Notes under the pieces: model-generated | What the model was told of the DNA's origin: nothing | Seen by the model: only the letters and a program-made list of their open reading frames with translations | The model's database searches: none | Origin: Escherichia coli | GTDB lineage: Bacteria; Pseudomonadota; Gammaproteobacteria; Enterobacterales; Enterobacteriaceae | Length of the DNA: 64,000 bases | Strand: one strand, 5' to 3' | Assembly: GCF_044324785.1 (NCBI RefSeq) | Contig: NZ_CP172127.1 | Shown: piece by piece, positions 58,437 through 58,496 of the stretch | How the letters are laid out: the number at the start of each line of letters is the position of its first letter | Numbering within the stretch: position 1 is the first letter of the stretch | Program-made: the position numbers and the translations under genes

Positions 58437-58496
58437 TGTGATTAATGTCACATTTTTGTTTTGATGGTTTGTTGAGTCTTTGTGATCTGAATCACA
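58437..58496. promoter_or_regulatory. two consensus-like CRP sites in the mtlA promoter region
   Basis: tgtga-ttaatg-tcaca (58437-58452) and tgtga-tctgaa-tcaca (58481-58496), both perfect TGTGA-N6-TCACA. Confidence 0.75.

Follow-up and report, generated by a model that had tools for sequence, protein, structure and literature searches.

We suggest that the two perfect TGTGA-N6-TCACA palindromes in the intergenic region between mtlA and yibI of this Escherichia coli genome correspond to two members, CRP3 and CRP2, of the array of five cAMP-CRP sites in the operator-promoter of mtlADR, a reading to which we assign a probability of about 0.93. The window, i.e. the whole stretch of 64,000 nucleotides that was analysed, is 100% identical to E. 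coli strain N3 (NZ_CP031609.1) from 58100 to 58800, and the allele is referred to here as N3. The sites are already known, having been footprinted in 1995 and mutagenised in 2026. An earlier note, made from the letters of the sequence, had pointed out the two palindromes upstream of mtlA. Both copies are present, at 58437-58452 and 58481-58496, and with mtlA on the minus strand they indeed lie upstream of it, in non-coding DNA 261-320 bp from the mtlA ATG. The note was right that these two sites are real, but the array comprises five sites, three of them perfect, and CRP5, CRP4 and CRP1 had been overlooked. The sites and the surrounding genes are as follows.

58524-58539: CRP1, TGTGATCTGCAGCATG, weak, 7/10, centre at about -262.5
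58481-58496, plus strand reading: CRP2, TGTGATCTGAATCACA, 10/10 half-site bases, centre at about -219.5
58437-58452, plus strand reading: CRP3, TGTGATTAATGTCACA, 10/10 half-site bases, centre at about -175.5
58364-58379: CRP4, CGTGATGCTCATCACA, 9/10 (one mismatch), centre at about -102.5
58320-58335: CRP5, TGTGATACCGGTCACA, perfect 10/10, centre at about -58.5, promoter-proximal and class-I-like
56263-58176, minus strand: mtlA, mannitol PTS enzyme IICBA, the regulated gene
55020-56168, minus strand: mtlD, mannitol-1-phosphate 5-dehydrogenase
54433-55020, minus strand: mtlR, whose product is the repressor docking on pairs of CRP dimers
58713-59075, plus strand: yibI (DUF3302), divergent neighbour and first gene of yibIH

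Perfect matches to TGTGA-N6-TCACA occur three times in the whole 64 kb, all within the 536-bp mtlA-yibI spacer; the mean chance expectation is 0.08 and none of 100 dinucleotide-preserving shuffles gave three. CRP4 was found by a mismatch-tolerant motif search and CRP1 by reading the sequence. From CRP5 to CRP1, the sites are centred at 58327.5, 58371.5, 58444.5, 58488.5 and 58531.5, giving centre-to-centre gaps of 44 bp (CRP5-CRP4), 73 bp (CRP4-CRP3), 44 bp (CRP3-CRP2) and 43 bp (CRP2-CRP1). Thus, three pairs of adjacent sites, CRP2-CRP3 and CRP4-CRP5 at 44 bp and CRP1-CRP2 at 43 bp, fall inside the 43-46 bp range required for MtlR binding.

In the K-12 mtl operator, five CRP sites are centred at -262.5, -219.5, -175.5, -102.5 and -58.5 (Lee et al., NAR 2026, PMC13421365), i.e. 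with spacings of 43, 44, 73 and 44 bp (PMC13421365); according to the account given there, this five-site array was mapped and footprinted by Ramseier & Saier 1995 (cited in PMC13421365). In an ungapped alignment with MG1655, the N3 allele has the same locus, the same five sites, the same 43/44/73/44 spacing and every half-site base, and the -35 hexamer, the Cra-like box and the -10 hexamer described below are also identical. The earlier note had proposed a comparison with the mapped mtl CRP sites, and by position and half-sites the two palindromes are the mapped CRP3 (-175.5) and CRP2 (-219.5). Both are contained in the fragment from -287 to -33 with which binding to the operator was assayed, and not outside the mapped promoter. 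The wording "promoter region" in that note holds in the sense that the pair is within the mapped operator; it is, however, far upstream of the core promoter and constitutes the distal pair rather than the promoter-proximal site.

The two alleles differ by 15 substitutions in approximately 590 bp, eight of which are in the N6 cores of CRP1, 3, 4 and 5. CRP2 is identical between N3 and K-12, CRP3 has identical half-sites and two core substitutions, and the CRP5 core of N3, CCGGTA, is absent from 12 other genomes and 73 metagenome contigs. For scale, flanking four-fold sites differ by approximately 8% between N3 and K-12. MtlR is identical to its K-12 counterpart at 194/195 residues with the single change D88E, and mtlA, mtlD and mtlR are annotated and intact downstream of the array. 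Because half-sites and spacing are identical, we infer that the N3 allele behaves like the K-12 allele. Through indirect readout, the N6 cores can influence how tightly CRP binds, and the quantitative behaviour of N3 may thus differ from that of K-12.

The remaining elements of the mtlA promoter were placed relative to the array.

58299-58304, minus strand: putative mtlA -35 hexamer TGGACA, placed from the published site centres
58286-58297, plus strand: Cra (FruR)-like box TGAATCGGTTAA, at -28 to -17, in the gap separating the -35 from the -10 hexamer
58276-58281, minus strand: putative mtlA -10 hexamer CAGATT, invariant in 13 E. coli alleles
58269 ± 2 nt, minus strand: predicted mtlA transcription start, back-calculated from the CRP5 centre at -58.5

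The two putative hexamers are separated by a 17-bp spacer and the predicted start would give an mtlA leader of approximately 93 nt. In K-12 the mtlA start was mapped with S1 (per PMC13421365); the register of the array is identical to K-12 in the ungapped alignment, and the start in N3 is predicted on this basis. The base at the predicted start is a T, with the register carried over from K-12, and the position may therefore be off by 1-2 nt. A simple promoter scan gave no mtlA promoter because the -10 hexamer CAGATT is too weak for the scan rule, and a scan of the whole window at Rfam gathering thresholds returned no RNA element in the mtlA-yibI spacer. The -35 hexamer is conserved across Enterobacterales in the column profile described below, and the Cra-like box is partly conserved across species. 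The Cra consensus is not enriched in the window (three found versus 2.8 expected); only the placement of the putative box is informative, and this placement fits the published Cra repression of mtl. With respect to activation, the literature describes the mtl promoter as a whole as class III. Only CRP5 (-58.5) fits a class I position within reach of the alpha-CTD of RNA polymerase, i.e. a single site one to a few helical turns upstream of the -35 (near -61.5, -71.5 and so on), while CRP3 and CRP2 at about -175.5 and -219.5 do not.

Variation within E. coli reveals how selection acts on the array. The spacer was found in 5,404 of 5,426 complete E. coli genomes; the N3 spacer allele (58177-58712) is unique among the 5,426, with the next best being 97.8% identical. 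In a 596-column alignment of 13 diverse alleles with 43 variable columns, none of the 50 half-site positions varies, while 12 of 30 positions in the N6 cores and 30 of 456 other intergenic positions do. For a sample blind to the cores, an invariant 36-mer next to the -35 hexamer was used to retrieve 120 metagenome contigs, 73 of which were usable. Among these 73 contigs, the 50 half-site positions have one singleton, and 15 of 30 core positions segregate with a pi of 0.114; the CRP2 core is near-invariant (69/73 contigs). The rest of the spacer has a pi of 0.014-0.019 (0.014 in the metagenome sample) compared to 0.06-0.09 at synonymous sites, four-fold synonymous pi being 0.062 in mtlA, 0.119 in mtlD and 0.071 for four genes pooled. 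In other words, the footprint of selection is one of frozen half-sites, approximately neutral cores and a remaining spacer approximately 5-fold below the synonymous level. No recognised site falls in the yibI-side half of the spacer (58540-58712), but conservation there within E. coli is as strong as in the mtl operator.

We also considered whether the N6 cores of CRP3, CRP4 and CRP5 evolve faster than neutral in E. coli, which appears doubtful. Core pi is 0.11-0.17 versus 0.06-0.09 at four-fold sites, and some positions in the cores are multi-allelic and homoplasic. In ten genomes, the cores had a pi of 0.165 and 0.77 Fitch steps per site, compared to 0.089 and 0.38, respectively, for four-fold sites (P ~0.01); this sample was biased towards spacer variants because the genomes were chosen by identity of the spacer itself. 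The core-blind metagenome sample with mtlA as the only control gave 0.114 versus 0.062 (P = 0.02). With a wider control comprising mtlA, mtlD, yibI and yibH, the cores are at 0.107 versus 0.071 (P = 0.085), and mtlD alone is at 0.119. We therefore rejected hypervariability of the cores beyond neutral: the excess is not significant with the four-gene control, and mtlD by itself is as variable as the cores. In effect the cores are neutral, and N6 has been described as barely conserved in CRP sites (PMC2504297). Were the excess true, it would point to selection retuning CRP affinity or the MtlR-CRP geometry by indirect readout, or to mutability induced by protein binding, and the CCGGTA core found only in N3 would be a functional regulatory variant.

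For comparison across species, one genome per species was scanned for pairs of perfect sites 43-46 bp apart, giving at least 120 loci. Directly upstream of an MtlA homologue lie 63 of the 120 listed loci; in seven further Enterobacterales/Pasteurellaceae loci among the matches listed, the mtlA side is cut off or only YibI is seen. Every listed pair with a readable neighbourhood in Enterobacterales, Pasteurellaceae and Orbaceae is at mtl and, among the matches listed, no pair from these groups is demonstrably away from mtl. Outside the three groups are 50 of the 120 listed loci, mostly from other phyla with a few unclassified Gammaproteobacteria MAGs, and a rough prior of about one chance match for the genome-wide pair pattern was accordingly too low. 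In Tannerella MAG contigs (L066 318-470, L067 2841-2950, L068 187-320), TGTGA-N6-TCACA occurs in arrays with a 23-bp period that are unrelated to mtl and CRP.

The start of mtlA is readable in 47 of the listed Enterobacterales loci and, with two exceptions, the perfect pair in these is CRP2-CRP3. The gaps are exactly 44/73/44 in 43 of the 47, i.e. in 43 other species; the exceptions are one locus with 72 bp, one with 74 bp and two in which one downstream site is below the mismatch threshold. These loci were chosen for one perfect pair and therefore do not speak to how often the pair is imperfect; the other pair and the 73-bp gap were no part of this choice and count as independent observations. 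Similarly, CRP2 is perfect in each of the 43 further anchored Enterobacterales species, this perfection being part of the anchoring criterion. Despite the fixed gaps, the ATG lies anywhere from 144 to 433 bp away from the array in those Enterobacterales loci. The frequency of the top base in 44 Enterobacterales sequences is 0.97 in half-sites, 0.54 in cores and 0.59 in inter-site DNA, and the column profile of these sequences shows the -35 hexamer, the Cra-like box and the -10 hexamer, while CRP1 is absent and thus not conserved. In Pasteurellaceae and Orbaceae, there are two or three perfect sites, separated either by gaps of 40-41 and 43-44 bp or by one gap of 43 or 44 bp. For instance, in eight Pasteurellaceae loci (L035, L070, L088, L089, L116, L117, L127, L132), three perfect sites spaced at 40-41 and 43-44 bp are located only ~100-220 bp from the mtlA start in a compact arrangement compared to the enterobacterial 44/73/44, and Orbaceae (Gilliamella) have a single 44-bp pair.

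These comparisons bear on the possibility that CRP1-CRP3, the distal sites, act mainly at a promoter of the divergent yibIH genes, or act there as well as at mtlA, which we regard as unlikely. The two transcription units share the 536-bp spacer, CRP2 is approximately 217 bp from the yibI ATG, and the stretch from CRP1 to yibI is also strongly conserved in E. coli; moreover, RNA polymerase binding and divergent promoters have been listed for the spacer (PMC3946193), and UTI89 fragments upstream of yibI had urine-induced promoter activity (PMC5404293). However, across Enterobacterales yibI starts anywhere between 113 and 347 bp from CRP2/3, in contrast to the fixed register of this pair relative to CRP4, CRP5 and the mtl -35 hexamer, and Pasteurellaceae and Orbaceae keep the pair beside mtlA with no YibI match in their loci. 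Mutation of CRP2 alone abolishes mtl expression in K-12 (PMC13421365), and the literature covered has neither a yibI start nor CRP dependence of yibI on record.

Assignment of the palindromes to the mtl array is also in agreement with the biochemistry published for the operator of K-12, Salmonella and V. cholerae. Transcription of mtl requires CRP, binding of cAMP-CRP to the K-12 allele was shown by EMSA, and chromosomal replacement of CRP2, CRP4 or CRP5 in K-12 abolishes mtl expression and growth on mannitol; the effect of replacing CRP3 is mild, while CRP1 is bound poorly and can be dispensed with (PMC13421365). On a fragment with CRP1-3, CRP prefers CRP2 and CRP3, and it is this pair that recruits MtlR (PMC13421365). 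MtlR is without a DNA-binding domain, does not bind to the operator alone and supershifts only DNA on which two CRP dimers sit 43-46 bp from each other, 44-45 bp being the optimum (PMC13421365). The earlier note had attributed the pair to catabolite control. This is correct in so far as these are mapped CRP sites of the mannitol operon, but it is incomplete, as the pair also serves MtlR-mediated, mannitol-specific repression.

Applied to N3, the mechanism would be as follows. At high cAMP, CRP dimers would occupy CRP2, CRP3, CRP4 and CRP5. CRP5 at -58.5 probably touches RNA polymerase directly, and the upstream sites would also be needed for activation, for which an architectural role (phase-dependent looping) or anti-silencing has been suggested. 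Because the centres of CRP2-CRP3 and of CRP4-CRP5 are 44 bp apart, an MtlR dimer could bridge the two CRP dimers at CRP2/CRP3, and likewise at CRP4/CRP5, and the operon would be repressed when mannitol is absent. Upon mannitol transport, dephosphorylated EII-Mtl (MtlA) would sequester MtlR at the membrane. In the presence of glucose, dephospho-HPr would compete for MtlR and free it, and repression would be restored.

Could the sites instead be purely for catabolite control, with MtlR acting elsewhere via operator DNA of its own? An earlier model, as it is cited in PMC13421365, has this form (Figge et al. 1994), and repressors of the Cra and Fis type bind the mtl region directly according to the literature. 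This arrangement is nevertheless very improbable: the supershift by MtlR is limited to CRP-bound DNA with 43-46 bp spacing, the malK operator gains MtlR binding when 10 bp are added (PMC13421365), and activation by CRP would on its own hardly account for a rigid 44-bp spacing in 43 other species. The notion that these are fortuitous palindromes, or copies of a repeat that was duplicated or is mobile, without any role in regulation can essentially be dismissed: short palindromes can arise by chance, 50 of the 120 listed loci are outside the three groups and Tannerella has its 23-bp arrays, but three matches were observed in one spacer against 0.08 expected, the half-sites are invariant while cores and flanks vary, and binding and mutagenesis data are available for K-12 (PMC13421365). 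An extended duplicated unit behind the repeated sites was likewise rejected, as the similarity between copies ends at 16-17 bp.

The MtlR-CRP arrangement can be compared with three other systems. Like CytR in its complexes with CRP at deoP2 and related promoters, MtlR is a repressor positioned between two bound CRP dimers and in contact with both, and in this way an activator array becomes a platform for repression. However, CytR has its own DNA-binding domain and operator, while MtlR has neither and reads only the 43-46 bp geometry. The malK operator is also a multi-site class III CRP region (four sites) in front of a sugar-uptake operon, but its neighbouring sites are 34 bp apart and it does not bind MtlR; the insertion of 10 bp, which changes this gap from 34 to 44 bp, creates MtlR binding (PMC13421365). 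Finally, the CRP site at -215 of the pap operon activates from more than 200 bp upstream and has been offered as a precedent for CRP2/CRP3; there, however, one distal site works together with Lrp/PapI phase variation and no repressor docks on paired sites.

Several other features of the window and of the mtl neighbourhood were recorded along the way. The mtlA-mtlD spacer (56169-56262) measures 94 bp in N3, as in NRZ94505, but 229 bp in K-12 and several further strains; FEX669 has 318 bp and clone D i14 has 419 bp. These length differences probably reflect a varying number of REP-type elements. Beyond yibL from the mtl operon, the segment 46865-53006 (minus strand) carries a YadA-like family protein gene of approximately 5.4 kb and a DUF3251 gene; K-12 instead has lldP a few hundred bp past yibL. 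On the other side, an Rhs element follows yibH at 60672-64000 (minus strand), with an Imm57 immunity gene at 60672-61193, a hypothetical gene at 61566-61973 and an RHS core protein from 62030. This region is strain-variable: several strains have frameshifted fragments of Imm57 and Rhs, and in clone D i14 and FEX669 the Rhs element is missing and yibH is directly followed by yibF-selAB. The Rfam scan also detected a C4 antisense RNA at 3072-3159 (minus strand, 79.5 bits) beside an isrK Hfq-binding RNA at 3222-3299 (minus strand, 67.1 bits), a pairing typical of the immunity region of P4- or P1-like prophages, and a JUMPstart element, an RfaH-dependent antitermination signal, at 18436-18474 (plus strand, 55.2 bits), which probably heads a polysaccharide or LPS-core operon.

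The footprints within the E. coli population and across species independently support the published MtlR-CRP model. The case also serves as a positive control, in that a reader working without tools recognised real, functional regulator sites. At the level of the operon, the functionally decisive property of the array is the fixed 44-bp spacing, which defines the target of a repressor that is itself unable to bind DNA.
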